DNA from: Myxococcota bacterium
Lineage (GTDB): Bacteria; Myxococcota_A; UBA9042; PHBI01; JAWLBL01
DNA length: 64,000 nt
Direction: 5' to 3'
NCBI GenBank assembly: GCA_041687695.1
Contig: JAWLBL010000028.1
Span: 1-64,000, forward strand
Each line of letters begins with the position of its first letter. Positions within the stretch are counted from its first letter, which is position 1. The position numbers and the translations under genes were made by a program. Positions 266-21,416 of the stretch are shown here, piece by piece. The notes under the pieces were generated by a model that saw only the letters and a list, made by a program, of their open reading frames with translations, had not been told where the DNA came from and ran no database searches.

Positions 266-1075
266 TCAGCGGACGTTGGTGGACTCGAAGATCTTGTCGG
301 CGCTCTGGGTGACGAAGCCGTCGAAGCGGCGGCCGGTCGCCGGGTCGGGGTAGCGGTAGGCGAACTCGTAGTAGCAGCTGGGGATCTCGCGCTGCACGCC
401 GCCGGCGAAGGTCCAGGGCACGCGGCTGGCGCGCGTCGAGGACTGCTCGAGCAGCTCGGCGGGGCCGCCCTTGATCTCGCCGCCCGCGGCGTTCAAGGCG
501 AAGCCGTGCTCCTTCAGGAAGGCGTTGACGGCGGCGATGGAGGTCAGGCGCCCGAGGCGGTTGACGTCGACCGTGAAGTGGTTGGCGCGCAGGCCGAAGG
601 CCGCGACCCAGGCGGCGTACTCGCTCTCGGCGAGCAGGCGCTCGTAGGTCTCGGCGTCGACCGCGGGCCAGGTGGGGGCCTCGGTCAGCAGGCGCTCGGG
701 CGGGAGGGTCGGGTCGACCCGGGCGGCCAGATCGCGGCAGACGCGCTGCAGGTCGGCGGAGAACTCGCCCGTCAGCAGCTCGCTGATGAAGACGCGCGGC
801 TGCTGGCCGCTGGGGTGACTGTACGACTTGGCGAGCAGCTTCTTGTCCTCGAACCGATACGTCCCGGTCTCGACGTAGCCGGCGTCGAGGAAGGGCTGGG
901 CCAGGCGGGGCAGGCGGATGGGGTCGAGGTCGAAGGTGCGGAAGGCCACGTGGTCGTTGTGGATGGACTCGCCCAGATCGCCCAGCAGCGCGTGGACGCG
1001 GTGGGCCTGCGGGGTGATGGCGACGTAGGCGTCCCAGAGCCTGGCGAAGAGATCTTCGAGCGAGGACGGAGCCAT
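266..1075 (-). CDS. DUF1338 family protein (2-oxoadipate dioxygenase/decarboxylase, HglS/YdcJ-like)
   Basis: 269 aa; motifs NDHVAFRTF, YAAWVAAFGLRANHFT, LLEQSST, CYYEFAYRY and FDGFVTQSADKIFEST are typical of DUF1338. Confidence 0.85.
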   Translation of the reverse strand: MAPSSLEDLFARLWDAYVAITPQAHRVHALLGDLGESIHNDHVAFRTFDLDPIRLPRLAQPFLDAGYVETGTYRFEDKKLLAKSYSHPSGQQPRVFISELLTGEFSADLQRVCRDLAARVDPTLPPERLLTEAPTWPAVDAETYERLLAESEYAAWVAAFGLRANHFTVDVNRLGRLTSIAAVNAFLKEHGFALNAAGGEIKGGPAELLEQSSTRASRVPWTFAGGVQREIPSCYYEFAYRYPDPATGRRFDGFVTQSADKIFESTNVR

Positions 1076-1098
1076 GGGCGAGACCTTTGGGTGGAGGT

Positions 1099-1725
1099 TC
1101 AGGAGGCCGGCAGCAGGGCCGCGCGGACCGGCGAGGCGTCGGCGCCGGCGAGCTTGAGGGGCAGGGCGACGAGGGTATACAGGCCGGGCTCGACGTGCGA
1201 GAGGACCAGGCCCTCGAGGTTGGCCATGTCGTGGCGGGCCAGGGCCTGGTGGCTCTCGAGCAGCTTGTCGTCCATGGGGTCGACCGAGGGGGTGTCGATG
1301 CCGATGAGGCGGACGCCCATGGCGGCGGCCAGATCGACCAGCTCGGGCGAGAGGCTGGCGAAGTCGTCGTTCCAGCGGTCCGGGTCGGGGAAGGTGCCCG
1401 TCTTGAACAGGACCCGCGGGGCGGTCAGGCGCTCGCGCAGGTGCTGGGGGCGGATGCGCGCGCCGCGCGGGACGTCGACGGCGACCACCTGGCAGCGGCC
1501 GTAGTACAGGTCCAGCGAGCGGGCCTCGATGGACTCGCCGTCCTGCCGATAGTGGCTGGGGGCGTCGACGTGGGCGCCGACGTGCAGGGTGGTGGTCATG
1601 GCGCTGAGGGTCAGGTTGGCGCCCTGGGCCATGTCCAGCGCGACCTCGCGGCGGAAGGGCACGTCGCCCGGCCAGACGGCGATGGCGGGCGAGACGGTCG
1701 GCGAGATGTCGATGAGCAGCCCCAC
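1099..1725 (-). CDS. kynB: Kynurenine formamidase (cyclase family metal hydrolase)
   Basis: 208 aa; VWPGD, HVGAHVDAPSH (HxGxHxDxPxH), GIDTPSVD and ADASPVRA; GTG start preceded by AGGAGG. Confidence 0.85.
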   Translation of the reverse strand: MGLLIDISPTVSPAIAVWPGDVPFRREVALDMAQGANLTLSAMTTTLHVGAHVDAPSHYRQDGESIEARSLDLYYGRCQVVAVDVPRGARIRPQHLRERLTAPRVLFKTGTFPDPDRWNDDFASLSPELVDLAAAMGVRLIGIDTPSVDPMDDKLLESHQALARHDMANLEGLVLSHVEPGLYTLVALPLKLAGADASPVRAALLPAS

Positions 1726-1747
1726 GCGTCCTCCTGACGGTCGGCGC

Positions 1748-3166
1748 CTACTTGGGCGCGACGGCGATGACCTTGAGCTCGACCGCGATGGGGGTGGGCA
1801 GGGCCGTGACGGCCAGCGTGGTGCGCGTGGCCTGGATGCCCGAGAAGTGCTCGGCGTAGACGGCGTTGTAGGCGGCGAAGTCGCGATCCATGTCGACCAG
1901 GAAGGCGGTGACGTCGATGACGTCCTCGAGGCGGGCGCCGGCGGCCTGGAGGATGGCCTTGACGTTCTCGATGGTGGCCCGGGTCTGGGCGGCGGCGTCG
2001 TAGTCGCGCGGGGCGCCGCCCGGGTCGCGGATGGGGCCGCCCGGGATGGCGTTGGTGCCGGCCTGGCGGGGGCCGACGCCCGACAGGTACAGCAGATCGC
2101 CGACGCGGCGGGCGTGCGGGTAGGCGCCGACCGGGGCGGGGGCGCCGGCCGCCATGACGGGGGCGCTGGTCGCGGGCGCGGGCTTGGGAGGCGGGGAGGG
2201 CGCGGCCGGGGTCGGCTGGGGCGCCGGGCCTTCGCCGGCCACCGGGGTCAGCACGCTGCGGTCGCCTCGGAAGACCTCGACGTCCTCCTCGTCGAACTCC
2301 TTGGCGGCGGCGGCCTTGGCGGCCGGCTTCAGCGCGACGACGGCGGCGCCGGTGCCGCAGATGGGGCCGTAGGCCAGGACGTCGCCCTCGTAGCGGTTGT
2401 GCTGGCCCATCACGGCGCCCAGCCACCAGATGGCCTTGAGCTTCTGGTCGGCGTGGGCCTGGCGGCTGAAGTCGCGGGCCAGCTGCGAGACGTCTTCCAG
2501 GCGGCCCTGGCCCAGGAACTCGAGCAGCTTTCGGTTCCACTCGTCGTCCTGCAGCGAGGACAGGCGGTCAGCGGCCGGGTCGATGGGCTCGGGGAAGACG
2601 CGGTTGGACAGCGAGGTGACGGCGACGGCGACGGCGCGCTTGCCGGTGGCCTGCAGGGCGTCGGCGGCGGCCTTGCCCAGGACCAGGGTCTCGGCGCGGT
2701 CGGCGTACATGTTGCAGCTGACGACGCAGGCGGGCAGGCGGCCCTCGGGGTCGAGCAGCTTCAGGGCGACGATGGTGCCGGTGTCGATGGGGAAGCCGCG
2801 ATAGGCGACGGTGCGGGCGTGCAGGCCGCGGGCGGTAGCGGCCTGCTGGTAGGCGTCGGCGAAGGCCGCGTCCATGCGGAACGCGTAGGGGATGGCGCCG
2901 AGGTCGTGCCACTCCTGGTCGACGTGGACCCACTCGGGGTTCGGATCGGCCTGGATCTGGTGGCCGATGACGCTGAGCCACTGGGTGCTGTAGAGCAGGA
3001 GCAGGTCGGCGTCGGCCTGTCGGACGCGCTGGGCGGCGACGGCGAAGGCGTCGCGCAGGGCGGCCCAGTGGGGCGAGCGGTCGGCGGCCAGCAGCGGGTG
3101 GGGCTTGCCGGGGACGATGAGGCCCAGCGGCAGGCCGGCGGGGCGTGCAGGGGTGGGCGAGGTCAT
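1748..3166 (-). CDS. 2-aminophenol 1,6-dioxygenase alpha subunit (AmnA-like) fused to a C-terminal RidA-family (2-aminomuconate deaminase-like) domain
   Basis: Start re-called at ATG 3166, overlapping the upstream TGA (ATGA). N-terminal LYSTQW, HVDQEW, GFPIDTGTI and DDEWNRK match AmnA; a Pro/Ala linker follows; C-terminal GAYPHARRVGDLLYLSG...RTTLAVTALP..IAVELKVIA is RidA/YjgF. Confidence 0.88.
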   Translation of the reverse strand: MTSPTPARPAGLPLGLIVPGKPHPLLAADRSPHWAALRDAFAVAAQRVRQADADLLLLYSTQWLSVIGHQIQADPNPEWVHVDQEWHDLGAIPYAFRMDAAFADAYQQAATARGLHARTVAYRGFPIDTGTIVALKLLDPEGRLPACVVSCNMYADRAETLVLGKAAADALQATGKRAVAVAVTSLSNRVFPEPIDPAADRLSSLQDDEWNRKLLEFLGQGRLEDVSQLARDFSRQAHADQKLKAIWWLGAVMGQHNRYEGDVLAYGPICGTGAAVVALKPAAKAAAAKEFDEEDVEVFRGDRSVLTPVAGEGPAPQPTPAAPSPPPKPAPATSAPVMAAGAPAPVGAYPHARRVGDLLYLSGVGPRQAGTNAIPGGPIRDPGGAPRDYDAAAQTRATIENVKAILQAAGARLEDVIDVTAFLVDMDRDFAAYNAVYAEHFSGIQATRTTLAVTALPTPIAVELKVIAVAPK

Positions 3167-4086
3167 GGGCGGGCCTCGTGGGGCGAGGTGGCGGGCGCGG
3201 CGCGGCGCGGATCCCACTCGACGACGGCGTTGCCGGTGCCGATGACGGTGCCGTAGGCGTGGACCTCGGCCGGGTAGCCGGGGAGCCCCAGGGCGCCCAG
3301 CAGCCAGGTCAGCGAGCCTTCCTTGCACTCGCTGGTCGCCTGCTCGATGAAGTCGGGCATGAGGCCCAGCAGCTGGCGGGTCTGGCCGCGGCGCATGAGG
3401 TCGAGCACGCGCATGTCCCACAGGTACTGCCCGTGGTGGTAGATGTGCTCGTGGGTCATGTCTTCGGGGATGGCGGGCTCGACCGTGAAGTGGCGGTGGC
3501 TCAGCGAGTTGCTGGCGGCGAGCACCGCGCGGCGGCCGCTGGCCTCGATGGCGCGGCGGGTCGCCTCTCCCAGGGCCAGCATCTGCGCCTCGCCGACCTC
3601 GTTGGAGAAGTCGTAGTAGGCCGAGTTGCTGGAGATGACGACGATGGGCTTGTCCCACTGTGGGCGCAGCATGTGGCAGGCGATGATGGCGCCGTAGTCC
3701 ACCCGGAAGTGCGGGTTGCGCATCAGCTGGGTGGTCAGGCCCGCCTCGGTCGCCTGGGCGGCGATGGCCTCGGCCAGCGGGACGTCCACGCGCAGGTCGT
3801 AGTGGTAGCGGAACAGGTTGGGGAAGATGGGGTCGACCGACAGGCCCTGGAAGCGCTCGACGCCCAGCAGGTGGTGGCCGACGCGGGTCTTCCAGTGGGG
3901 CGAGTGGACGACGATGACGTCGAAGTCGCGGTCCGACAGGGAGCGGCGGGCGCGCTCGTAACCCCAGCGCAGCTCCTCCCAGCCGCACTCGGCGCGCGGC
4001 TCGTTCTGCGGCGGGTTGTCGGCGTAGACCAGGTGCGGCGGGTGCGGGGCCAGAAAGCCCGCGACGATGGAGCCGGGGGTGCTCAC
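3163..4086 (-). CDS. amnB: 2-aminophenol 1,6-dioxygenase beta (catalytic) subunit, LigB-type extradiol dioxygenase
   Basis: GTG start at 4086 overlapping the upstream TGA. AGFLAPHPPHLVY.DNPPQNEPR, VHSPHW, SVDPIFPN.FRY, LSHRHF and YGTVIGTGNAV match AmnB/CnbCb closely as I recall them. Confidence 0.92.
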   Translation of the reverse strand: MSTPGSIVAGFLAPHPPHLVYADNPPQNEPRAECGWEELRWGYERARRSLSDRDFDVIVVHSPHWKTRVGHHLLGVERFQGLSVDPIFPNLFRYHYDLRVDVPLAEAIAAQATEAGLTTQLMRNPHFRVDYGAIIACHMLRPQWDKPIVVISSNSAYYDFSNEVGEAQMLALGEATRRAIEASGRRAVLAASNSLSHRHFTVEPAIPEDMTHEHIYHHGQYLWDMRVLDLMRRGQTRQLLGLMPDFIEQATSECKEGSLTWLLGALGLPGYPAEVHAYGTVIGTGNAVVEWDPRRAAPATSPHEARP

Positions 4087-5546
4087 GGCGCGCCTCCCAG
4101 GTGGATGCAGATGTTCTGGGGTTCGCTGAAGAACTCGAGGGACCAGCGGCCGCCCTCGCGGCCGACGCCGCTGTCCTTCACGCCGCCGAAGGGGACGCGC
4201 AGATCGCGCATCAGCCAGGTGTTGACCCAGACCATCCCGACGTCCAGGCGCGCCGAGAAGCGGTGGGCGCGCTGGAGATCGCGGGTCCAGACCGAGGCGC
4301 TGAGGCCGTACTGGACGCCGTTGGCGATGGCCAAGGCCTCGGCCTCGGTGTCGAAAGGGTGGACGGTGGCGACCGGGCCGAAGATCTCTTCGGTGGAGGT
4401 GCGGCAGGTGGGGGACAGGCCGGTGATCAGCGTCGGCGCCAGGAAGGCGCCGCGGTCGAAGGGGGCGGGCAGGTCGGGGCGGCGGCCGCCGGTGACCAGG
4501 GTGCCGCCCTCGTGCCGGGCCAGCGCCACGTAGCCCTCGACCTTGTCGCGGTGGGCCTGCGAGACCAGGGCGCCCAGCTGGGTGGCCGGGTCGGCGGGGT
4601 CGCCCAGACGCATGGCCTCGGCGCGCTGGGCCAGGGCGTCGACGAAGCGGTCGTGGAGGGAGCGCTCGACCAGGATGCGCGAGCCGCACAGGCAGATCTG
4701 GCCCTGGTTGGTGAAGGCGGCACGGGCGGCGCCGTCCACGGCGGCGTCGAGGTCGGCGTCGGCGAAGACGACGGTCGCGTTCTTGCCGCCCAGCTCGAGG
4801 CTGAGCTTCTTGAAGCTGGCGGCGGCGGTCGCGGCGACGTGGCGGCCGGTGGCGGTGCCGCCGGTGAACGAGATGGCGGACACGTCGGGGTGGGCGACCA
4901 GGGCCTGGCCGGCCTCGGGGCCGTAGCCGTGGACGACGTTGAAGACGCCGGGCGGGGCGCCGGCCTCGGCCAGGATCTCGGCCAGGGCGCTGGCGGTCTG
5001 CGGGGTCAGCTCGCTGGGCTTGGCGACGACCGTGTTGCCCATGGCCAGGGCGGGCGCGGCCTTCCAGCTGAGGAGGTACAGCGGCAGGTTCCAGGGGGTG
5101 ACGAGGCCGACCACGCCCAGCGGGCGGCGCACCGTGTAGTTGAGCGCCTGCGCCATCGGGTGGCAGGGCGTCTCGTCGTGGCGGGCGGCGCCGGCGAAGA
5201 AGCGGAAGTTGGCGACCGCGCGCGGGATGTCGATGGTGCGGGCGAGGCCGACGGGCTTGCCGGTGTCCTGGGACTCGAGCGCGGCCAGCTCGTCCAGGCG
5301 CGCCTCGAGGCGGTCGGCCACGGCGTCGAGCAGATCGGCGCGCTCGGCGGCGCTGGTGCGGCCCCAGGCGCCCTCCCTGGCCTGTCGGGCGGCGGCGACC
5401 GCCGCGTCGACGTCGGGCGCGGTGCCCCGGGCGATGCGGGCGACCACCTGCCCGGTCGCCGGGTACACGTCGTCGATGCGCTCGCCGCCGGCCGGCGCCA
5501 CCGCGCGCCCGCCGATGAAGTGGTCCAGGACGCGAGGGTCGCTCAT
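4083..5546 (-). CDS. amnC: 2-aminomuconate (2-hydroxymuconate) semialdehyde dehydrogenase, ALDH8A1/AmnC-like
   Basis: 487 aa ALDH; DIPRAVANFRFF, PWNLPLYLLSWK, LELGGKN, NQGQICLCGSR, EEIFGPV and RDLRVPFGG; gene context supports the call. Confidence 0.88.
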   Translation of the reverse strand: MSDPRVLDHFIGGRAVAPAGGERIDDVYPATGQVVARIARGTAPDVDAAVAAARQAREGAWGRTSAAERADLLDAVADRLEARLDELAALESQDTGKPVGLARTIDIPRAVANFRFFAGAARHDETPCHPMAQALNYTVRRPLGVVGLVTPWNLPLYLLSWKAAPALAMGNTVVAKPSELTPQTASALAEILAEAGAPPGVFNVVHGYGPEAGQALVAHPDVSAISFTGGTATGRHVAATAAASFKKLSLELGGKNATVVFADADLDAAVDGAARAAFTNQGQICLCGSRILVERSLHDRFVDALAQRAEAMRLGDPADPATQLGALVSQAHRDKVEGYVALARHEGGTLVTGGRRPDLPAPFDRGAFLAPTLITGLSPTCRTSTEEIFGPVATVHPFDTEAEALAIANGVQYGLSASVWTRDLQRAHRFSARLDVGMVWVNTWLMRDLRVPFGGVKDSGVGREGGRWSLEFFSEPQNICIHLGGAP

Positions 5547-6709
5547 GCCTCGTCTCCCGCGGGCCAGCCGCCGCCCAGGCCCGCCGAGGCCGGCCGCATG
5601 TCCCCGCCCAGGCCGGGCAGGCTGAAGCGGTCACGGTTGGGGTCGAAGTCGTCCCAGGTCGGGACCTCTTCCAGCCGCGCCAGATACCGCTCGGGCACCA
5701 GGCCCGGCACCAGGAAGGCCTTCTGCCGGTGCAGCGGGTAGGGGTTGCGCAGCTCGAAGCCCAGGACGCCCAGCACCGCGCGCGCCACGTACCAGGTCGC
5801 CTGCGGGTTCCAGCCGTGCGCGATCTTGATGACCACGCCCAGCCCGTCCGGGAAGTCGTCGTGGACGATGGCCAGGCCCAGCAGGCCGTCCGCGCCCTCC
5901 TTGGCGACCACGGCGCCGCCGCACGCCTTGAGGATGCTGCTGTCGAGGCGGTTGAAGCCGCCGACCAGGTCCGGGTGGCGGGTCATCGCCTCCCAGATCC
6001 AGTCCTCGTCCCGGTGCCGCGCCAGATCGGCGAAGGTCATCGCCAGCTCGCCGACGGTGTTCGAGACCGTGGGCAGGTTGCACCCGTCGCGCGCGACCCG
6101 CAGCGGCCGCCAGTCGGCGCCCAGCGAGCGCCGCAGCACGCCCAGGTAGGCCTCGAAGAAGGGATGGTCGGGCAGGGTGTAGCCGGCGCGGGGCCAGCCC
6201 ATCAGGCGCGACCCCAGCAGGATCGCCGCGTGCTCGCCCGAGCAGCAGTGATACCAGCGCCGCGGCCGCCGCACCTGCCGCCCGAACTGCACCAGCGGCA
6301 CGTCCAGCGGGGTCTGCATCAGGCCCCACTCGTCCTCGCGCAAGAGCGACTGGGCCGCCGCGACGTGCTCGACGTCGCCGTTGTGGCTCGACACGGCGAT
6401 GGCCCGCTGCGGCCACGACGTCGCCGCCTCCAGCGCCTTCGCAAGCGGCTTCATCATCAGCGGCTTCATCATGCTGCGCCCGTAACACAGCACGTTGCCG
6501 CCGAAGCTGTGCACGATGCGCCCGCCGCTGGCCCAGGCCACCGCCCCGTGCACCGTGGTCTCGCTGACGCCGTGCCGCCGGTAGTCGACCAGCGGCTCCC
6601 ACTCGACGTCGCGCCCGGTCGGGATGCGCGCGTCCTGCTCGCCCAGCGGGCTGGTCGGGTACAGCGCGTCGCCCGGCCTGTCGCCGCGCCCCGACCGCGT
6701 CGGGCTCAT
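5543..6709 (-). CDS. L-asparaginase II (Rhizobium etli AnsA/ReAV, class 3) family hydrolase, variant active site
   Basis: Start re-called at ATG 6709 (ATGA overlap). Motifs RSMMKP, SSHNGDVEH, HCCSGEH, RDGCNLPT and AKEGADG correspond to class 3 RSxxKP, SHxG, NCSGKH, DGC and KxGAxG. Confidence 0.8.
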   Translation of the reverse strand: MSPTRSGRGDRPGDALYPTSPLGEQDARIPTGRDVEWEPLVDYRRHGVSETTVHGAVAWASGGRIVHSFGGNVLCYGRSMMKPLMMKPLAKALEAATSWPQRAIAVSSHNGDVEHVAAAQSLLREDEWGLMQTPLDVPLVQFGRQVRRPRRWYHCCSGEHAAILLGSRLMGWPRAGYTLPDHPFFEAYLGVLRRSLGADWRPLRVARDGCNLPTVSNTVGELAMTFADLARHRDEDWIWEAMTRHPDLVGGFNRLDSSILKACGGAVVAKEGADGLLGLAIVHDDFPDGLGVVIKIAHGWNPQATWYVARAVLGVLGFELRNPYPLHRQKAFLVPGLVPERYLARLEEVPTWDDFDPNRDRFSLPGLGGDMRPASAGLGGGWPAGDEA

Positions 6710-7932
6710 CGGGCCAGCCTCTCGGCCACGCGCGGCGCCACCTCGCGCTGGAAGGCCTCCATGTCGGCGACGACCCGCGCCGAGTCGTGGTTGAAGAAGT
6801 CGAACCACAGCATCAGCCGGTCGTCCGGGTGGAAGCGCTCGACCATCTGCTGGGCGACCTCCTCGGCGTCGCCGACGAGGGCGTTGTCGGCGGCCCTGTC
6901 GACCTTGTTCGGGTCCAGCGTCCCCTCGAGCGCCCGCCAGTAGGCGCCCAGCGCCCGCCGCGCCTCCTCGCGCGCCCGGGCGCGGCGCTGCTCGCGGCTG
7001 AGCCCCGGCTGCTCGTTCAGGAACACGAAGGTCGTCCGCGGCATGTAGGCCCGCTGCCAGGGCCCGCCGTCCGGGTGGTAGGCCCGCGCCATGCGCGCGT
7101 GGGTGTCCTCGATGACCTCGGGGCGCGTGATGGACAGGTTGAAGACCTGCACCGGCAGGATGCGGTTGACGCGCTCCTGCAGCTCCGGGTCGTGCGAGCC
7201 GATGACCGGCTGCACCAGCTCGCGCCGCCACTGGCTAGGGACGATCTTCAGGCGGTCGAACTGCCACCGCGGGCGCAGCGTGACCACCTCGTCGGTCGTG
7301 CCCGCCGCGTCCTGCACGGCGCGCCAGTGGTCGTCGGAGCGGAAGTCCGCCCGCGTGGCCGTCCGCGGCGCCAGATCCGACGAGGCCAGCTCGTCGCCGC
7401 GCAACAGGCGCAGGAAGATCTCGGCGGCCTCGTCGAAGGTCTTGCCCTTCATCACCGGGCCCAGGGCCCGCTCGACCGCGTCGCGCGGCACGATGCCCGA
7501 GGCGCGGTTCATGAAGTCGAAGCGCCCGGCCGCGAAGCCGACGTGCAGCCGCCGCGTCTCGGCGGGGTCGAGGCCGTGCAGGGCCGCGCAGGCCGCCACG
7601 CGCTCGGCGTGCGCCACCGGGCCGCCCATGCACAGGATGTTCATCACGGCCGAGCCGACCTCGAGCCGCCGGGTGCGCCGCAGCACGTTCCCGGCCAGCT
7701 GCACGAAGTCGACGTTCAGCCCGACCTCGCCCTCCCAGTGCGGGATGACCGGCTCGGGGCCGCGCTTTTGCACCTCGCTCGACAGGTGCGACTCGGCGAT
7801 CCACGCCGTCCCGTAGCCCAGCTGGTCCGCCGCTTCGACCTGCTCGAAGAAGTTGCGGAACATCTCGGCTTCGCTCGGCAGGTACCCGTCCACCGGCGTC
7901 TGGCTGATGGAGAAGAAGATGTCGTACTGCAT
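6706..7932 (-). CDS. LLM-class (bacterial luciferase-like) flavin-dependent oxidoreductase/monooxygenase
   Basis: 408 aa; AADQLGYGTAWIAESH, TRRLEVGSAVMN, AERVA..AL, RLHVGFAAGRF and LVGDAEEV..Q; GGGAG RBS. Confidence 0.85.
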   Translation of the reverse strand: MQYDIFFSISQTPVDGYLPSEAEMFRNFFEQVEAADQLGYGTAWIAESHLSSEVQKRGPEPVIPHWEGEVGLNVDFVQLAGNVLRRTRRLEVGSAVMNILCMGGPVAHAERVAACAALHGLDPAETRRLHVGFAAGRFDFMNRASGIVPRDAVERALGPVMKGKTFDEAAEIFLRLLRGDELASSDLAPRTATRADFRSDDHWRAVQDAAGTTDEVVTLRPRWQFDRLKIVPSQWRRELVQPVIGSHDPELQERVNRILPVQVFNLSITRPEVIEDTHARMARAYHPDGGPWQRAYMPRTTFVFLNEQPGLSREQRRARAREEARRALGAYWRALEGTLDPNKVDRAADNALVGDAEEVAQQMVERFHPDDRLMLWFDFFNHDSARVVADMEAFQREVAPRVAERLAR

Positions 7933-8363: not shown

Positions 8364-10340
8364 CTAGGCTTCGGCCTTGGGGACGGCCAGGGCGGCCGCC
8401 TCCTCGAGCAGCTTCGTCACCCGCTGCGCGAAGCGCGCCGGGTCGTCGATGGGGCTGCCCTCGGCCAGCAGCGACTGGTCGTACAGGACCTCGATCCACT
8501 CGGTCAGCTGCGGCGCGTCGGCGTCGTCGGCGTGCAGCTTGCGCAGGCTCTCGACCAGCGGGTGCTTGGGGTTGAGCTCGAGGATGCGCTTGGTGGCCGG
8601 CACGTCCTGCTGGTTCATCCGCAGCATCCGCTCGAGGTGCGCCGGCAGGCCGCCCTCGGGCACCACCAGGCAGGTCGGCGACGAGGTCAGGCGCTTGGAC
8701 AGCTGCACCTTGGCCACCTGCTCGCCCAGCACCTGCTCGAACTTGGCCAGCAGCCCGGCCAGCTCGTCCTTGCGCTGGTCCTCGCCCTCGTCCTTGGCCT
8801 CGTCCTGCCCCTCGAGCGGCAGGTCCGCCTTGAGCGCCGACACCAGGCGCTTGTCGTCGAAGGTCGACAGGCCCTCGACCGCCCACTCGTCGATGGGGTC
8901 GGTCATGTACAGGACCTCGTAGCCCTTGCTCCGCAGGGCCTCGAGGTGGGGGCTCGCCGCGACCGCCTTCTCGGAGCCGCCGACGATGTAGTAGATGGCG
9001 TCCTGCCCCTCGGGCATGCGCTCGACGTACTCGGCGAGCGAGGTCAGGCCGTCGACCTTGGAGCTGCGGAAGCGGACGAGCTTCGCCAGGCGGTCCCGCG
9101 ACTCGGGCGCGAAGTGCAGGCCCTCCTTCAGCACCGGGCCGAACTGCTCCCAGAACAGCCGGTAGTCGTCCGGCCGGTCCTTGGCCAGCTCGTCCAGCAG
9201 ATCCAGGGCCTTCTTGACGATCTGCTTGCGGATGGAGCGCAGGACGGTCGAGTCCTGCAGCAGCTCGCGCGACACGTTCAGCGGCAGGTCGTCCGAGTCG
9301 ATGAGCCCGCGGAGGAAGCGCAGCCACTGCGGGACCAGCTCCTCGCAGTCGTCCATGATGAAGACGCGCTTGACGTAAAGGCGCACGCCGCGGCGCTTGT
9401 TGGGGTCGTAGAGATCGAACGGCGCCTTGCGCGGCAGGAACAGGACGCCGGTGAACAGCTGGACGCCCTCGACCTTGAAGTGGGTCCAGGCGAGCGGCGC
9501 CTCCCAGTCGTGGCCCAGGTGCTTGTAGAACTCCTGGTAGTCCTCGTCCTTCAGCTCGCCCTTGGGCCGCTGCCACAGGGCCTTGCCGCGGTTGGCCTGC
9601 TCGAGGACCAGCTGCTTTTCGGCCTCGGCGTCCTCGGCCGCGCCCTCGGGCCGCTCCCAGCGCTCCTCCTGCAGCTTGATGGGGTGCGAGACGTAGTCCG
9701 AGTAGCGCCGGACGAGGTCCTTGAGCTTCCAGGCGTCCAGGAAGTCCTTCGCGTCGTCCTTGAGGTGCAGCACGATGGAGGTGCCCTGGTGCTCGCGCTC
9801 GGCCGGCGTCACGGTGAAGCCGCCCTTGGCGTCGCTGCTCCAGCGGTAGGCCTGCCCGCCCTCGGCGCCCGCCGCGCGGCTGACCACCTCGACGCGGTCG
9901 GCCACCAGATAGGCGCTGTAGAAGCCGACGCCGAACTGGCCGATGAGCCCCAGCGCGTCGCCGCCTTCACCCGCGCCGGCGCCGGCCTGCTCGCGCGCCG
10001 CCTCGAGGAAGCGCCGCGTCCCCGAGTGCGCGATGGTGCCCAGGTTCTCGATGAGCTCGTCGCGGGTCATGCCGACGCCGAAGTCCTCGAGGGTCAGCGT
10101 GCCCGCCTCGGCGTCCGGCAGGATCCGGATCTCGAGCGGGGCGCCCTCGGTGACGAGGTCGTGCTGCGTGAGCGCGCGGTACTTGAGCTTGTCGATCGCG
10201 TCCGACGCGTTGGAGATCAGCTCGCGGAGGAAGATCTCCTTGTTCGAGTACAGCGAGTTGATGACGAGGCCGAGGACCTGGTTGACCTCGGCCTGGAACT
10301 GGAACTGCTCGGGGCTGACGTGCTCCGTCGTGGCCGCCAT
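8364..10340 (-). CDS. htpG: Molecular chaperone HtpG (Hsp90)
   Basis: 658 aa; YSNKEIFLRELISNASDA, IGQFGVGFYS and LPLNVSRE; AAGGAGG RBS. Confidence 0.97.
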   Translation of the reverse strand: MAATTEHVSPEQFQFQAEVNQVLGLVINSLYSNKEIFLRELISNASDAIDKLKYRALTQHDLVTEGAPLEIRILPDAEAGTLTLEDFGVGMTRDELIENLGTIAHSGTRRFLEAAREQAGAGAGEGGDALGLIGQFGVGFYSAYLVADRVEVVSRAAGAEGGQAYRWSSDAKGGFTVTPAEREHQGTSIVLHLKDDAKDFLDAWKLKDLVRRYSDYVSHPIKLQEERWERPEGAAEDAEAEKQLVLEQANRGKALWQRPKGELKDEDYQEFYKHLGHDWEAPLAWTHFKVEGVQLFTGVLFLPRKAPFDLYDPNKRRGVRLYVKRVFIMDDCEELVPQWLRFLRGLIDSDDLPLNVSRELLQDSTVLRSIRKQIVKKALDLLDELAKDRPDDYRLFWEQFGPVLKEGLHFAPESRDRLAKLVRFRSSKVDGLTSLAEYVERMPEGQDAIYYIVGGSEKAVAASPHLEALRSKGYEVLYMTDPIDEWAVEGLSTFDDKRLVSALKADLPLEGQDEAKDEGEDQRKDELAGLLAKFEQVLGEQVAKVQLSKRLTSSPTCLVVPEGGLPAHLERMLRMNQQDVPATKRILELNPKHPLVESLRKLHADDADAPQLTEWIEVLYDQSLLAEGSPIDDPARFAQRVTKLLEEAAALAVPKAEA

Positions 10341-10429: not shown

Positions 10430-16399
<5,970 letters not shown>

Positions 16400-16624
16400 G
16401 GCGGTTTCGCTCGCTGACGGGGAAGGGGACGGCGGGGAGCGTGCGTCGCAAGCTCCCGGAAGGCCGATGCTAGCGAAGCGCTCGGGGCGCTGGCAAGGTC
16501 GCCCGCGCGCGTCGTCGGCTTCCCGGGCGCCCGGATGGCGGGGCTGCTTGCCCTGCACCGGACGCTCTGGTTCCATGGGCGCCGCGTCTCCCACCGGCCC
16601 CGGGAGCCGACCCAAGGAGCCACG

Positions 16625-17188
16625 ATGACCGGCCGCGCCGACCTCGTCCCCGACCCCCGCGCCGCGACCCTGCTCGTGGTCGACGTCCAGGAGCGGCTGA
16701 TGGCCGTGATGCCCGACGCCGACCTGGCGCAGCTGGTCAAGGCGACGCAGGCCCTCGTCGCGACCTTCCGCCACTTCGGCGGCCGCGTCGTCTTCACCGA
16801 GCAGTACCCGGCGGGGCTCGGGCCGACGGTCGGCGCGCTGGCGGGCGCGCTCGAGGGGGCCGACCGCCTCGAGAAGGTCGAGTTCTCGGTCGCCGCCTGC
16901 CCGGCCTTCGGCGCCCTGAGCCCGCCGCTGTCCGGGGACGTCGTCCTGTGCGGCGCCGAGACGCACGTGTGCGTGCTCGCGACCGGGCTCGATCTCCTGG
17001 CGGCCGGCCACCGCGTCTTCGTCCCGATCGACGCCGTCGTGTCGCGCCACCCGCGCCATCGCGACAACGGGCTGCGCCTGTTGGCCGAGGCCGGCGCCCG
17101 GCTGGTCAACGCCGAGACCATCCTGTTCCTGGCCCTCGGCGCCGCCGGCACGGACGAGTTCCGCCGACTGTCGCGCCTGGTGCGCTGA
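16625..17188 (+). CDS. Isochorismatase family hydrolase (YcaC/ISOC-like)
   Basis: [28 protein letters not shown] and [17 protein letters not shown] upstream of ATG 16625. Confidence 0.9.
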
Positions 17189-17323
17189 GCGGCCGCCGCG
17201 TCGACCGGTTACTGGCGACCGCGGGGGGGCTTTCGACGCGCCTCGCCCAGCGGTATGCTCGTCCGGGCCCCACGTGCCACGGCGCGGGGGCGCCCACTTG
17301 CTCGGACGGGGACGGAGGGGGCG

Positions 17324-20300
17324 ATGCAACGCTGGGGTGGCTTTGGCTTCGCGGTTTTGGTGGGCGCGGTCTCTTTGCTCACGTCGTGCAGTGATCCGGT
17401 GGCCGGGTCGGCGCTGCAGTACGTCGGAGAGGACGCGCTGAAGCTGCCGCCGACCAAGGGCGAGGGCGACGTGGGCGCGACCGACCTGGGCGAGCCGGAC
17501 GCGCAGGACGTCGACTCGGGCCCGGGCGACGACGGCACGATCGACACGGTGGTGCCGCCCGAGTGCACGACCGCCGAGGACTGCGAGGGCCAGGTCGCGC
17601 CGGGCGTGTGCCAGGTCGCCGCGTGCCTCGCCGACGGGACCTGCGGCGTCGAGGAGGCCTCGGACGGGGCCGCCTGCGACGACGGCAACCCTTGCACGGG
17701 CACCGACACCTGCGCGGCCGGGGCGTGCGTCGGCGGCGACAACCAGTGCCCCTGCCAGACCTCGGACGACTGCGCGGCCTTCGAGGACGGCGACGCCTGC
17801 AACGGCACGCTGGTGTGCGTGGCCGACGTGTGCGCCCTCGACCCGGCGACCGTGGTCACCTGCGCGCCCGGCAAGGACCCGTGCGCCGTGGTCGGGTGCG
17901 AGCCGACGACCGGCGAGTGCGTGACCGACGCCGCGCCCGACGGCACGCCGTGCGAGGACGCCGACGCCTGCACCGTCGGCGACAGCTGCCAGTCGGGGCT
18001 GTGCGCGTCGGGTGGTCCCGTCGCCTGCGAGGTCGACGGGCCCTGCGCCGTCGCCAGCTGCGACCCCGAGGCCGGGTGCGTGCAGACCGCGGTCGACGAC
18101 GGGACCGCCTGCGACGACGGCAACCCGTGCACCTCGGGCGACGCCTGCGCCGCCGGGGCGTGCCTGGGGGGCGCCTCGGTGTGCGACTGCGCGTCCGACG
18201 CCGACTGTGCGCCCTTCCAGACGGATCTCTGCCAGGCGGCGCTGGTGTGCGTCGACGGTCAGTGCCAGGTCGGGCTGGGCCAGCCGGTCGGCTGCCCGCC
18301 TTCGGACGATCCGTGCCTCGTGTCCCAGTGCGATCCGGCGACCGGGGCGTGCGGGACGACGCCGGCGGCCGACGGGACGACGTGCGGCGATCCGGCCGAC
18401 GCCTGCGCGGTCGGGGCGACGTGCCAGGCGGGCGCCTGCGTGGCGGCGGCGGGGCTGTGCGACGACGGGAACCCCTGCACCACCGACGTGTGCGACCCGA
18501 TCAAGGGCTGCGGGCACCTGCCGGCCGAGGGCGCGTGCGACGACGGCAACGCCTGCACCGAGGGCGACGTCTGCGTGGAGGGCGCGTGCGTGGGCGAGCC
18601 GGTGTGCGCGTGCGAGTCGGACGACGACTGCGCGGGCGAGGGCTTCGATCTGTGCCTGGGCACCTGGTCGTGCCAGGCGGCGGTCTGCGTCGTGGTCGGC
18701 GCTCCGGTCGACTGCTCGAAGCTGGGCGACGGCGTCTGCGCCGTGGGGGCGTGCGATGCGACGACGGGCGCGTGCGTCGTCGCCGCGGTGGCCGACGGGA
18801 CGGCGTGCGACGACGCCGACCCCTGCACCGAGGGCACGGTCTGCGCCGCCGGTGAGTGCGGCGGCGGCGACACCAAGGTGTGCAACGACGGCAACCCGTG
18901 CACCGACGACAGCTGCCAGGCCGGCAAGGGGTGCGTCCACAAGCCGAACTCGGCGCCTTGCGACGACGGCAACGCGTGCACGGTCGACGAGGCGTGCGCC
19001 GGCGGGACCTGCAAGGGCGGGGTCGCGGTGGTGTGCACCGGCGGCGGAGCGTGCGCGACGGCGGTGTGCGACGCGGTCAAGGGCTGCGGGGTCGTACCCA
19101 AGGACGACGGGGAGGGCTGCGACGACGGCAACGACTGCACGTCGGGCGACGCCTGCGTCGCCGGGGCGTGCGTCGGCGAGTCCGTCTGCGCGTGCGAGGC
19201 CGACGCGGACTGCGTCGACGACGGCGACCTGTGCAACGGCGTGCCGCGGTGCGAGGGGGGCGCGTGCGTCGTGGACCCGGCGACCGTCGTCACGTGCGAC
19301 GGGGGCGGCGTCTGCGAGAGCGTGACGTGCGATGCGGCGACCGGGGCGTGCGTGAAGGCGCCGTTGGCGGACGGGACGAGCTGCCCGGCCGGCCCGTGTA
19401 AGAAGGGCGGCGCGTGCGTCGGCGGCGTGTGCCAGGGGGCGGACGTCGACTGCTCGGACGGCAACCCGTGCACGGCCGACTCCTGCGATCCGGCGACCGG
19501 CCAGTGCGTCAACGCCGCGGTCGACGGGGCGACCTGCGACGACGGCGACCCGTGTACGCTGGCCAGCGTGTGCCAGGCCGGCTCGTGCGTCGGGTCGGTC
19601 AAGAACACGTGCGACGACGGCAACGCCTGCACGGTCGACACCTGCGAGCCGGGCGTCGGCTGCAAGCACGCGCCGCTGCCTCCGTGCGACGACGGGGACG
19701 CCTGCACCGACGACGCCTGCGACCCGGCCGTCGGTTGCACGTTCGTCGCCAAGGTCTGCGCCCCGTCCGCCGCGCCCTGCACGACTTCTTCGTGCAACCC
19801 GACCAACGGCCAGTGCCAGTCGAGCCCCGTGGCCAGCGGGTCCGCCTGCGACGACGGCGACCCGTGCACCAGCGGCGACGCCTGCAGCGGGGGCGCATGC
19901 AAGGGCCAGCCGGTCAGCTGCGATGACGGCGACGCCTGCACGACCGACGCCTGCGGGCCGACGGGCTGCACGCACGCGCCCGTCGCGGGCTGCGGCGTCG
20001 ACCCGCAGTGCGAGGGCAAGCTCGGCGGCGTGGCGTGCGACGACGGCGACGACGCCACCACCGCGGACATGTGCATCGCCGGCAAGTGCCGCGGCTACGT
20101 CGTCCACCGCGCCAACGGCGACGCGCTCGAGATCGGCCACGTCGGCTACCACGAGGTCGACTACGCGGCCGGCAAGTGGTTCGTCGTCGGCAGCGCCAGC
20201 CCGGTGTGGGGCGGCGGGTCCACCTACGCCATCGTCGACGCCACCAACCCCACCTTGCCCGGCATCTACCAGTCGACCATCCAAGGCTACCTGTTCCGAG

Positions 20301-21154
20301 ACCTGCACGGCGGCTTCGCCGTGGACTCGAACGCCGCGCTCTGGCAGTTCGACGGCACGGGGTGGACGGCGACCAGCCCGCTCGCCAACGCGCTGTACGC
20401 CACGGGGTTCGGCAGCCTGTTCGGCGTCTGGTCTCAGGCCAACCCGGCGGGCCAGCGGACGCTGTGGGTCGTGGGATCGGCCAACTCGCAGCCGTACGTG
20501 CGGCGCTGCACCGAGGTCGGCTCCGTCACCTGCACCGTGCAGACGCTCGGCACGACCCAGGCCCGCCTGCCGCGCGCCGTGACCGGCTACCAGGCCTGCG
20601 GCGCCAACGGCTGCACGACCCACCTGTCGCTCGGCGCCGACCAGAGCGCCGGCAGCGGCTACTACTACAACCACACCTACGACAACGCCGGCGGCACCCA
20701 GAGCCCCTGGAGCTCGGGCTACAACGACGGCGGCGCCGCGATGACGCAGACCACCGCCATCGCCGCCTATGGCGACGGCCGGTTCATCCTGGTCGGCACC
20801 AACGGCCTGATGCGGTTCCGTGCGACGAACGGCGCCTGGGGCAACACCGTCACGGTGAACAACGGTCAGGCGAACCGGACCTTCACCGGCGCCTGGATCG
20901 GCGCAGACGTCGTCGTCCTGTCGGCCTGGCGCGCGACCAGCACACAGCGGGTCTACGAGCTGTGGACGGCCGACCGCGCGGCCAACGGCACCGCGGCGTC
21001 GAGCTGGACCATCCACCAGCTGGGCACCGACGGCTCGGGCAGCGCGAACCTGGCCGACGTGCGCGGCCGCGAGGACGGCTCGGTGTACGCGGTCGGGACG
21101 GGCCGCGGCTCGGACTTCTACCTCGACGGCGTGATGTTCGTCCGCACTCCCTGA
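17324..21154 (+). CDS. Large Cys-rich repeat lipoprotein (CDDGNPCT repeats) with non-repetitive C-terminal beta-rich domain
   Basis: GGAGG then ATG 17324; signal peptide ending LLTSC; many CDDG(N/D)xCT repeats; about 350-aa Gly/Trp/Thr-rich C-terminus. Confidence 0.85.
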
Positions 21155-21190
21155 TGAGGCGCCGCGCCGTGGGCCGTGGACCTCTGGACC

Positions 21191-21416
21191 CGGCCCACGG
21201 CCGCGGCCACGGCCACGGTGCCGGCCTCCGCCGCGGCCGCGGCTACGGTCCCGGCCACGGCCCACGGCCCCGGCCTCCGCCACGGCCCACGGCCCCAGCC
21301 GCGGCCACGGCCCACGGCTTCGGTCACGGCCTCGGCTCCGGCCCCGGCCACGCCCACGGCTTCGGTCACGGCCACGGCTCCGGCCACGGCCACGGCCACG
21401 GCCACGGCCCCGGCCT
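21191..21416. repeat. Degenerate hexanucleotide tandem repeat (NCGGCC, mostly ACGGCC) between convergent genes
   Basis: Phased ACGGCC/GCGGCC/CCGGCC/TCGGTC units over about 225 bp, with a few phase slips. Confidence 0.85.

Follow-up and report, generated by a model that had tools for sequence, protein, structure and literature searches.

What becomes of kynurenine in a bacterium whose genome encodes a kynurenine formamidase and in which no kynureninase is found? The question is raised by seven open reading frames (ORFs), all on the minus strand, at positions 266-7932 of a 64,000-nucleotide stretch from a Myxococcota bacterium (contig JAWLBL010000028.1 of assembly GCA_041687695.1). This stretch, here called the window, is the start of contig C28 of a genome of 7.97 Mb that is 99.3% complete. 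The operon combines KynB and the enzymes of 2-aminophenol ring cleavage with a luciferase-like flavin monooxygenase (LLM) and an asparaginase homolog (ASN2). The original prediction, made from the DNA letters, held that LLM and ASN2 bridge kynurenine to 2-aminophenol. Our genomic tests support this route, and for its mechanism we infer a Baeyer-Villiger reaction. That tryptophan is degraded independently of kynureninase through 2-aminophenol is well supported and quite probable, whether the bridge works by Baeyer-Villiger oxidation, by hydroxylation and retro-Friedel-Crafts cleavage, or by way of anthranilate. It is also likely that this is a branch of kynurenine catabolism free of pyridoxal phosphate (PLP), occurring across several bacterial phyla and in marine archaea, in which LLM and a repurposed class-3 asparaginase yield L-aspartate and 2-aminophenol and a short-chain dehydrogenase/reductase (SDR) converts oxalocrotonate to 2-oxoadipate. 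As to the chemistry, we lean towards a Baeyer-Villiger aryl migration followed by beta-aspartyl hydrolysis.

LLM and ASN2 are linked to tryptophan and aminophenol genes

The conservation of the operon was followed in a GTDB genome scan with LLM, in which at least 548 stretches were confirmed. The best 80 loci, with 58-76% identity, were kept and all linkage counts refer to them; many end at contig edges. ASN2 and the SDR were each found in 66 loci, the aldehyde dehydrogenase (ALDH) in 61, AmnB in 47, AmnA in 43, KynB and the Rid deaminase domain in 39 each, tryptophan dioxygenase (TDO) in 29 and HglS in 2. In the 49 loci with at least 7 kb downstream, ASN2 and ALDH were present 44 times each, AmnB 38 times and KynB 33 times. 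When the ORFs of the 80 loci were clustered, one extra conserved gene emerged, the SDR, which usually lies directly upstream of LLM. No further gene recurred in more than 6 loci, the genes in the gaps were sporadic, and no overlooked decarboxylase, aminotransferase or flavin reductase was found to be conserved among the 80. The most complete loci hold TDO, the SDR and the six core genes together and nothing else that is conserved. In a few loci whose flanks are long (L013, L056), LLM occurs without the ring-cleavage genes. The source records name Myxococcota, Planctomycetota, Bdellovibrionales, Holophagaceae, Latescibacterota, Eisenbacteria and one Poseidoniaceae archaeon, several labels of metagenome-assembled genomes (MAGs) among them looking unreliable. 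One locus (L077) comes from Proteobacteria bacterium DTSAM18, which has no MAG tag and is a possible cultured host.

The distribution of the canonical genes was then read from whole genomes. Fifty of the 80 locus genomes were searched, 46 picked for carrying LLM, ASN2 and AmnB and four with LLM apart. Kynureninase over the cut-off was present in 0 of the 50 (7 weak matches, at most 45 bits), and TDO was present in 47. Another 201 genomes, sampled evenly from the same phylum and partly overlapping this set, contained LLM in 28, operon-type ASN2 (64% identity or more) in 27, AmnB in 29, the SDR (E 1e-45) in 35, TDO in 88 and HglS in 16; 20 further genomes had distant ASN2 homologs only. The canonical genes kynU, for 3-hydroxyanthranilate dioxygenase (HAO) and for kynurenine 3-monooxygenase (KMO) were found in 38 (37 over the cut-off), 34 and 33 genomes. 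The 28 LLM genomes had ASN2 in 26, AmnB in 27, the SDR in 27, TDO in 26 and HglS in 6, and kynU, KMO and HAO in none. There was zero overlap between the 29 genomes with LLM or ASN2 and the 40 with any canonical gene. Among the 173 LLM-negative genomes AmnB occurred in just two, G101 and G216, and in the latter ASN2 and AmnB are present and LLM is cut by the contig end. LLM was found in 26 of the 88 genomes with TDO, compared with 2 of the 113 without it. The profiling covered the linked genes and chosen families, and kin within the samples are not independent; the hypergeometric values (0.002; 3e-8 within the TDO genomes) ignore this kinship and are not relied on. These counts agree with both expectations of the original prediction, namely that the LLM/ASN2 pair travels with amnAB, kynB and kynA, and that it avoids kynU, kmo and haao, with which it was never found in the genomes searched.

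The canonical operon at locus L175 contains, in order, an SDR about 50% identical to ours, ALDH, Rid, HAO, 2-amino-3-carboxymuconate semialdehyde decarboxylase (ACMSD) and kynU. Since L175 shares the SDR, ALDH and Rid, these appear to be common to both routes. With TDO, KynB, ALDH, Rid and the SDR shared, LLM, ASN2 and AmnAB would therefore occupy the place of KMO, KynU, HAO and ACMSD. Kynurenine has ten carbons and the ring substrate six, and because no decarboxylase was found, a C4 unit would be lost; one oxygenase and one hydrolase that remove a C4 amino-acid unit would give aspartate and 2-aminophenol.

With these queries, 23 of the 88 TDO genomes showed neither kynU/KMO/HAO nor LLM/ASN2, and some may use another route (G052, G060, G073, G110, G119, G121, G139, G145, G149, G154, G160, G165, G169, G184, G189, G199, G200, G203, G206, G214, G230, G244 and G247). 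In G101 (locus L172) amnBA adjoins a cluster of the multicomponent phenol-hydroxylase type and a gene of the carboxymuconolactone-decarboxylase family, with no LLM, which is a different upper pathway within the same phylum. A cysteine-dioxygenase-family gene stands upstream of TDO, ahead of the operon, in L009, L071 and L073.

The operon and the rest of the genome

All seven ORFs, their common orientation and the tight coupling of the first five were confirmed; neighbouring genes overlap by 4 bases (ATGA/GTGA) at each of the first four junctions, and gaps of 22 and 23 bases follow at the last two (Table 1). Kynureninase, KMO, 3-HAO and ACMSD, noted before as missing from the operon, were found neither there nor elsewhere in the genome, where the best ACMSD match had 23% identity. 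As a control, the identical kynU, KMO and 3-HAO searches were positive in 33-38 of the 201 relatives. TDO and a flavin reductase had been predicted to lie outside the window, and both were found. TDO is encoded on contig C13 (PF03301 above cut-off; TIGR03036 268 bits, below the cut-off of 391), and the flavin reductases comprise one PF01613 and three PF03358 proteins. The SDR is on C16 (109273-110079), with 60-75% identity to the three query sequences, which came from operon copies. The genome has nadA and no second copies of KynB, AmnA, AmnB, LLM or ASN2. For KynB, the TIGR03035 score is just below the cut-off and the best PDB matches are kynurenine formamidases.

Table 1. Genes of the operon, listed from its first gene, with window coordinates
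Product	Position	Strand	Supporting match
LLM, luciferase-like flavin monooxygenase, uncharacterised subfamily	6706..7932	-	PF00296 47.6 bits, cut-off 27.9
ASN2, class-3, Rhizobium etli-type asparaginase / asparaginase-II homolog	5543..6709	-	PF06089, E 8e-48
ALDH, 2-aminomuconate 6-semialdehyde dehydrogenase (AmnC/NbaE-like)	4083..5546	-	PDB matches E 3e-159 to 5e-154
AmnB, 2-aminophenol 1,6-dioxygenase beta (catalytic) subunit, GTG start	3163..4086	-	PDB 8IHG/3VSG E 1e-115
AmnA-Rid fusion, 2-aminophenol dioxygenase alpha + 2-aminomuconate deaminase domain, Pro/Ala linker	1748..3166	-	PDB 7TXY_A, 6IZH
KynB, kynurenine formamidase	1099..1725	-	TIGR03035 217.5 bits (cut-off 223); PDB 4COG E 2e-50
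HglS/DUF1338-family 2-oxoadipate dioxygenase/decarboxylase	266..1075	-	PF07063 108.8 bits, cut-off 25

LLM has a luciferase-type fold

LLM represents a 408-residue subfamily for which no NCBIfam cut-off was met. PDB sequence searches returned weak luciferase matches only, and the ESM Atlas search returned only uncharacterised clusters of the same family. The structure was predicted with a pLDDT of 94.7. The nearest folds to the model were luciferases (1LUC), 8CBB and RslO1 with Z 29-31, followed by 3,6-diketocamphane monooxygenase (DKCMO; 5AEC/4UWM) with Z 26 (for 5AEC Z 26.3 and a root-mean-square deviation of 3.7 over 320 aligned residues), F420 dehydrogenases with Z 24 and RutA/MsuD/SsuD with Z 22-23; identities to these neighbours were 13-22% overall. 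The modelled fold is thus nearer to luciferases and type II Baeyer-Villiger enzymes than to the RutA/SsuD-type and F420 enzymes, and is compatible with a peroxyflavin attack on a ketone. Of the earlier likening of LLM to DKCMO-type enzymes, the shared barrel fold stood, and a closer kinship to DKCMO than to the luciferases did not; a sequence profile from LLM gave no DKCMO match at E 1. On the strength of its co-occurrence, LLM is proposed to be an oxygenase of kynurenine or N-formylkynurenine.

The reduced flavin would come from unlinked enzymes; reductase families occur elsewhere in the genome and none is linked in the 80 loci. LLM was also considered as an F420-dependent or an oxalocrotonate reductase. 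This was rejected, as the search for an F420 ligase in the genome gave none and L175, a canonical operon, arrives at the same lower steps using the SDR and without LLM. One protein (P0132, 1501 aa) joins LLM to domains of glutamine-amidotransferase-like and ApbE (flavin transferase) type and to an unassigned C-terminal part.

ASN2 keeps the acylation residues of class 3 asparaginases

ASN2 matches the Rhizobium etli asparaginase ReAV with E 5e-17 and its model has the ReAV/ReAIV fold. Seven residues (R78, S79, K82, S108, H160, D208 and K270) are kept in all 57 full-length operon copies. The ReAV tandems Ser48-Lys51 and Ser80-Lys263, together with Arg47 and Asp187, are conserved in 57/57 operon copies and in 120/120 aligned homologs. 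The residues of ReAV that bind the alpha-carboxylate and form the beta-acyl enzyme have been described (PMC12292245), and ASN2 keeps them. Class 3 asparaginases are also treated in PMC12951835 and PMC8602277.

Other positions of the active site have changed. ReAV N134 is replaced by Cys or Thr in 55 of the 57 operon copies and Q54 by Met, Thr or Ala in all, and F252, E271 and H298 are added invariant residues, with Trp or Tyr at 300. Cys/Lys/Cys and the Gln are retained in all 12 homologs that stand outside such operons in the same phylum, and two genomes (G064 and G116) carry both an operon-type and a canonical homolog. By these residues the operon ASN2 is a separate subfamily, and it is probably not the cell's asparaginase. 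We propose that ASN2 is a hydrolase of a beta-aspartyl aryl ester or anilide that releases aspartate and 2-aminophenol.

The ring-cleavage enzymes and the lower route

The top seven PDB sequences matched by ALDH are all named 2-aminomuconate 6-semialdehyde dehydrogenase, and TIGR03216 scored 638 bits, below the cut-off of 693. AmnB and AmnA are adjacent subunits of the LigB type. AmnB is 57.5% identical to CnbCb, and its residues H15, H64, Y131, H197 and E253 are kept in 45/45 operon copies; presumably they correspond to H13, H62 and E251 and to Y129 and H195 of the reference beta subunit in numbering and role. The best alpha-chain match of AmnA is 7TXY_A (E 6e-61), and the best match of the Rid domain is the 2-aminomuconate deaminase 6IZH (E 7e-27). 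Of the 38 loci holding both domains, 32 encode AmnA and Rid as a single fused protein. The linked deaminase-like domain points to an amino-substituted ring as the substrate of AmnAB. Whether the tryptophan-linked or the xenobiotic AmnB came first was approached with a quick tree, which had long outgroup branches and an open base and allowed no conclusion.

The gene assignments of the original prediction for AmnAB, AmnC and the deaminase were confirmed; the lower enzymes of the amn/cnb operons were not found. Oxalocrotonate decarboxylase, hydratase, tautomerase, aldolase and acylating dehydrogenase of these operons gave no tblastn match at E 1e-5 in the genome or in the 80 loci. With no decarboxylase or hydratase, 2-oxohex-3-enedioate must be consumed in some other way. 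The usual catalytic tyrosine motif is missing from the SDR, whose PDB matches include the bacilysin reductase YwfH (E 1e-28), a conjugate reductase. HglS matches the hydroxyglutarate synthase 6W1K over residues 9-267 (E 3e-35), and its presence in this copy of the operon suggests that the lower route leads to 2-oxoadipate. The lower route therefore probably ends through the SDR and 2-oxoadipate, with HglS acting on the latter here; the evidence for the role of the SDR is modest. HglS, present in 6 of the 28 LLM genomes and in only 2 of the 80 loci, was rejected as a core gene, and is a lineage-specific accessory that has joined the operon in this order of bacteria.

An SDR homolog with 36-40% identity adjoins kynU and a KMO-like gene in L148. 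SDR orthologs with 61-66% identity occur at L173, L174, L176, L177 and L178, in five genomes without TDO, LLM and AmnB, which suggests relics or another substrate. A metagenome scan with the SDR of the canonical operon gave 15 loci, one by kynU, two by ALDH alone, one by LLM and 11 with none of the queried genes.

The proposed route

We infer the steps of TDO, KynB, AmnAB, ALDH, Rid and HglS from close characterised homologs, and those of LLM, ASN2 and the SDR only from the gap that they would fill. TDO, which is unlinked here and linked in many genomes, and KynB would yield L-kynurenine. LLM, supplied with FMNH2 by an unlinked flavin reductase, would place one oxygen atom between the aromatic ring and the ketone. 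This type II Baeyer-Villiger step with aryl migration would give the beta-aspartyl ester of 2-aminophenol; electron-rich aryl groups are the preferred migrators in Baeyer-Villiger oxidation. 2-Aminophenyl esters undergo an O-to-N shift, and the ester may rearrange to N4-(2-hydroxyphenyl)-L-asparagine, a natural type of substrate for an asparaginase homolog. Hydrolysis by ASN2 through a beta-aspartyl enzyme at Ser79 would then release L-aspartate and 2-aminophenol. The ring would be opened by AmnAB, ALDH would form 2-aminomuconate and the fused Rid domain 2-oxohex-3-enedioate, which the SDR, conserved and unlinked here, would reduce to 2-oxoadipate. HglS would convert this to 2-hydroxyglutarate. 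LLM could also precede KynB and act on N-formylkynurenine, which we count as the same explanation.

Weighing the route against alternatives

Several observations weigh against this route or against its proposed chemistry. The identity of LLM to DKCMO is only 14-15%, and the family motif of LLM is ESH, which we take to be the counterpart of EHH in luciferase; the chemistry of LLM is therefore not fixed by homology. A 52% identical LLM with the motif GSH is encoded on plasmid pCLA1 of Streptomyces clavuligerus ATCC 27064 (L215:14001-15245). DUF389 and polyprenyl synthetase genes follow it and the other operon genes are absent within 14 kb, so that at 52% identity LLM homologs can occur apart from the operon; this one, from a cultured organism, possibly has another job. 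The mutual exclusion of LLM and kynU follows family lines, with LLM in 7 families and none shared with kynU, and the profile thus reflects a handful of independent events and not 28. G221, which is 90% complete, has LLM, AmnBA, KynB, TDO and the SDR, and operon-type ASN2 was not found in it. The SDR was present in only 1 of the 40 canonical-route genomes at E 1e-45, while 6 genomes that lack TDO and both routes have it.

The remaining objections concern ASN2. In place of ReAV K138, 55 of the 57 operon copies have Glu and 2 have Gln, and two copies (L038 and L064) have lost both zinc cysteines. In ReAV the zinc site of Cys135, Lys138 and Cys189 is reported to be strictly conserved, Lys138 has a roughly 90-fold effect on kcat (416 vs 4.8 per second) and loss of the zinc cysteines kills the enzyme (PMC11024299). 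Beta-aspartyl peptidase activity is reported absent in ReAV and ReAIV (PMC13451416). With K138 changed and the cysteines lost in two copies, an Asp-type acyl group is not assured. In L038 and L064 the cysteines are replaced by Ser and Asp and the Glu by Gln, the Ser-Lys tandems being intact; judged by these residues, the two copies are possibly a metal-free form.

Foremost among the alternatives, and unlikely, is that LLM is a non-homologous kynurenine 3-hydroxylase and that ASN2 splits the aryl-CO bond of 3-hydroxykynurenine by a retro-Friedel-Crafts reaction, giving the same aspartate and 2-aminophenol. Hydrolysis of this kind is known from PhlG and phloretin hydrolase. All co-occurrence results fit this scheme as well, the ketone of kynurenine sits where asparagine has its amide carbonyl, and the new invariant residues F252, E271, H298 and W/Y300 and the altered metal site could belong to such a reaction. 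However, activation of the aminophenol ring would be much weaker than that of phloroglucinol, an ordinary acyl transfer is what the intact Ser-Lys tandems suit, and we know of no Ser-Lys amidohydrolase that performs a retro-Friedel-Crafts cleavage.

Ranked next, and unlikely as well, is that a further unlinked enzyme is needed or that AmnAB acts on a ring other than free 2-aminophenol, such as 3-hydroxyanthranilate or another substituted aminophenol. The scope of the profiling leaves room for such an enzyme, TDO and the SDR being themselves unlinked in this genome, and the residue after the catalytic H197 of AmnB is Arg in 44/45 operon copies and Trp in CnbCb. Yet this Arg is also found in one nitroreductase-linked plasmid AmnB, and the make-up of the most complete loci argues against a missing partner. 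Cleavage of 3-hydroxyanthranilate would need an ACMSD-like decarboxylase before ALDH, and none was found beyond the 23% match.

It is quite unlikely that LLM and ASN2 serve another substrate (an N-acyl-aminophenol, a benzoxazolinone or another natural product), or that ASN2 is a plain asparaginase, with the link to tryptophan incidental. The lone LLM homolog of S. clavuligerus speaks for it, as do the 23 TDO genomes with neither route, in which TDO demands none. Set against these are KynB in the operon, TDO in 29 of the 80 loci and the concentration of LLM in TDO genomes, and a plain asparaginase is opposed by the canonical residues that the 12 non-operon homologs keep and the operon copies do not, and by the two genomes that carry both forms.

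Very unlikely is a passage through anthranilate, in which ASN2, alone or with a housekeeping aminotransferase, would free anthranilate or N-formylanthranilate and a C3 unit and LLM would be a decarboxylating anthranilate hydroxylase yielding 2-aminophenol and CO2: it likewise takes just one oxygenase and one hydrolase, and the altered amino-acid anchor of ASN2 could suit a keto acid, but no aminotransferase recurs in the loci, no kynU was found in the genome, and cleavage between C-beta and C-gamma without PLP would be chemically hard.

Surroundings of the operon

Outside the conserved set, a gene that by eye resembles HtpG/Hsp90 is found 431 bases upstream of LLM (8364-10340, minus strand). 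At higher window coordinates lies an ORF of 3617 codons (10430-21283, minus strand) with many cysteine-rich and calcium-binding-type repeats, the first half of which may be a wrong-frame read-through into the real gene. A promoter and terminator scan found none, and is uninformative at this G+C content.

Significance and comparison with known systems

If true, the route through 2-aminophenol would be a new way through an amino-acid catabolic pathway that is among the best studied. Two activities would be new, that of an oxygenase acting on kynurenine and that of an aryl-aspartyl hydrolase, and the SDR would be a candidate 2-oxohex-3-enedioate reductase. Tryptophan would be a natural source of substrate for 2-aminophenol 1,6-dioxygenase, otherwise tied to pollutant degradation, and many annotations as 'L-asparaginase II' and 'alkanesulfonate monooxygenase' would be corrected. 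The PLP-free pair of enzymes that removes kynurenine and the 2-aminophenol route could serve as biocatalysts. No description of this route was found in full-text literature searches, most subscription papers lying outside their reach. The upper and lower parts of the route encoded by the operon are known, whereas no precedent was found for the bridge between them.

The two proposed bridging enzymes have known relatives. LLM has the same barrel fold as DKCMO and bacterial luciferase, and differs from them by its 14-22% identity, by ESH in place of EHH and by its proposed substrate, an aryl-ketone amino acid. ASN2 shares with ReAV and ReAIV the fold, both Ser-Lys tandems and the equivalents of Arg47, His139 and Asp187, whereas K138, N134 and Q54 are replaced and F252, E271 and H298 added.

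The ring-cleavage genes resemble the amn/cnb operons of nitroarene degraders, on Comamonas pCNB and similar plasmids. AmnB is 57.5% and AmnA 37.5% identical to CnbCb and CnbCa, ALDH is 51% identical to the pCNB dehydrogenase, and a Rid deaminase is present. In contrast to those operons, AmnA is fused to Rid, the genes upstream are tryptophan genes, and the lower genes are different. In the ARO microcompartment locus of Micromonospora rosaria an aminophenol dioxygenase is likewise found in natural habitats, and 7TXY_A is its alpha chain, whereas the candidate upper enzyme there is HyuAB (PMC10470539). The main text of that paper does not mention tryptophan, kynurenine, luciferase or asparaginase; it calls the upstream precursor of 2-aminophenol in ARO loci unknown, and according to it use of the 2-aminophenol route had, as of 2023, been shown only for degraders of nitro- and chloroaromatics (nitro-/chlorobenzene).

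The canonical bacterial kynurenine pathway runs via 3-hydroxyanthranilate and comprises kynA, kynB, kmo, kynU, haao, acmsd, aminomuconate semialdehyde dehydrogenase and 2-aminomuconate deaminase (bioRxiv 10.64898/2026.06.05.730449, citing Colabroy and Begley 2005). For the steps after 2-aminomuconate that preprint gives those of eukaryotes, and no mention of an SDR was found there. The route proposed here shares with this pathway TDO and KynB at the top, the semialdehyde dehydrogenase and the deaminase at the bottom and, in one canonical operon, a 50% identical SDR. It differs in the middle, where LLM, ASN2 and AmnAB stand in place of KMO, KynU, HAO and ACMSD. In conclusion, the proposed route would free aspartate and not alanine and CO2, would proceed without PLP and would give no precursor of quinolinate.

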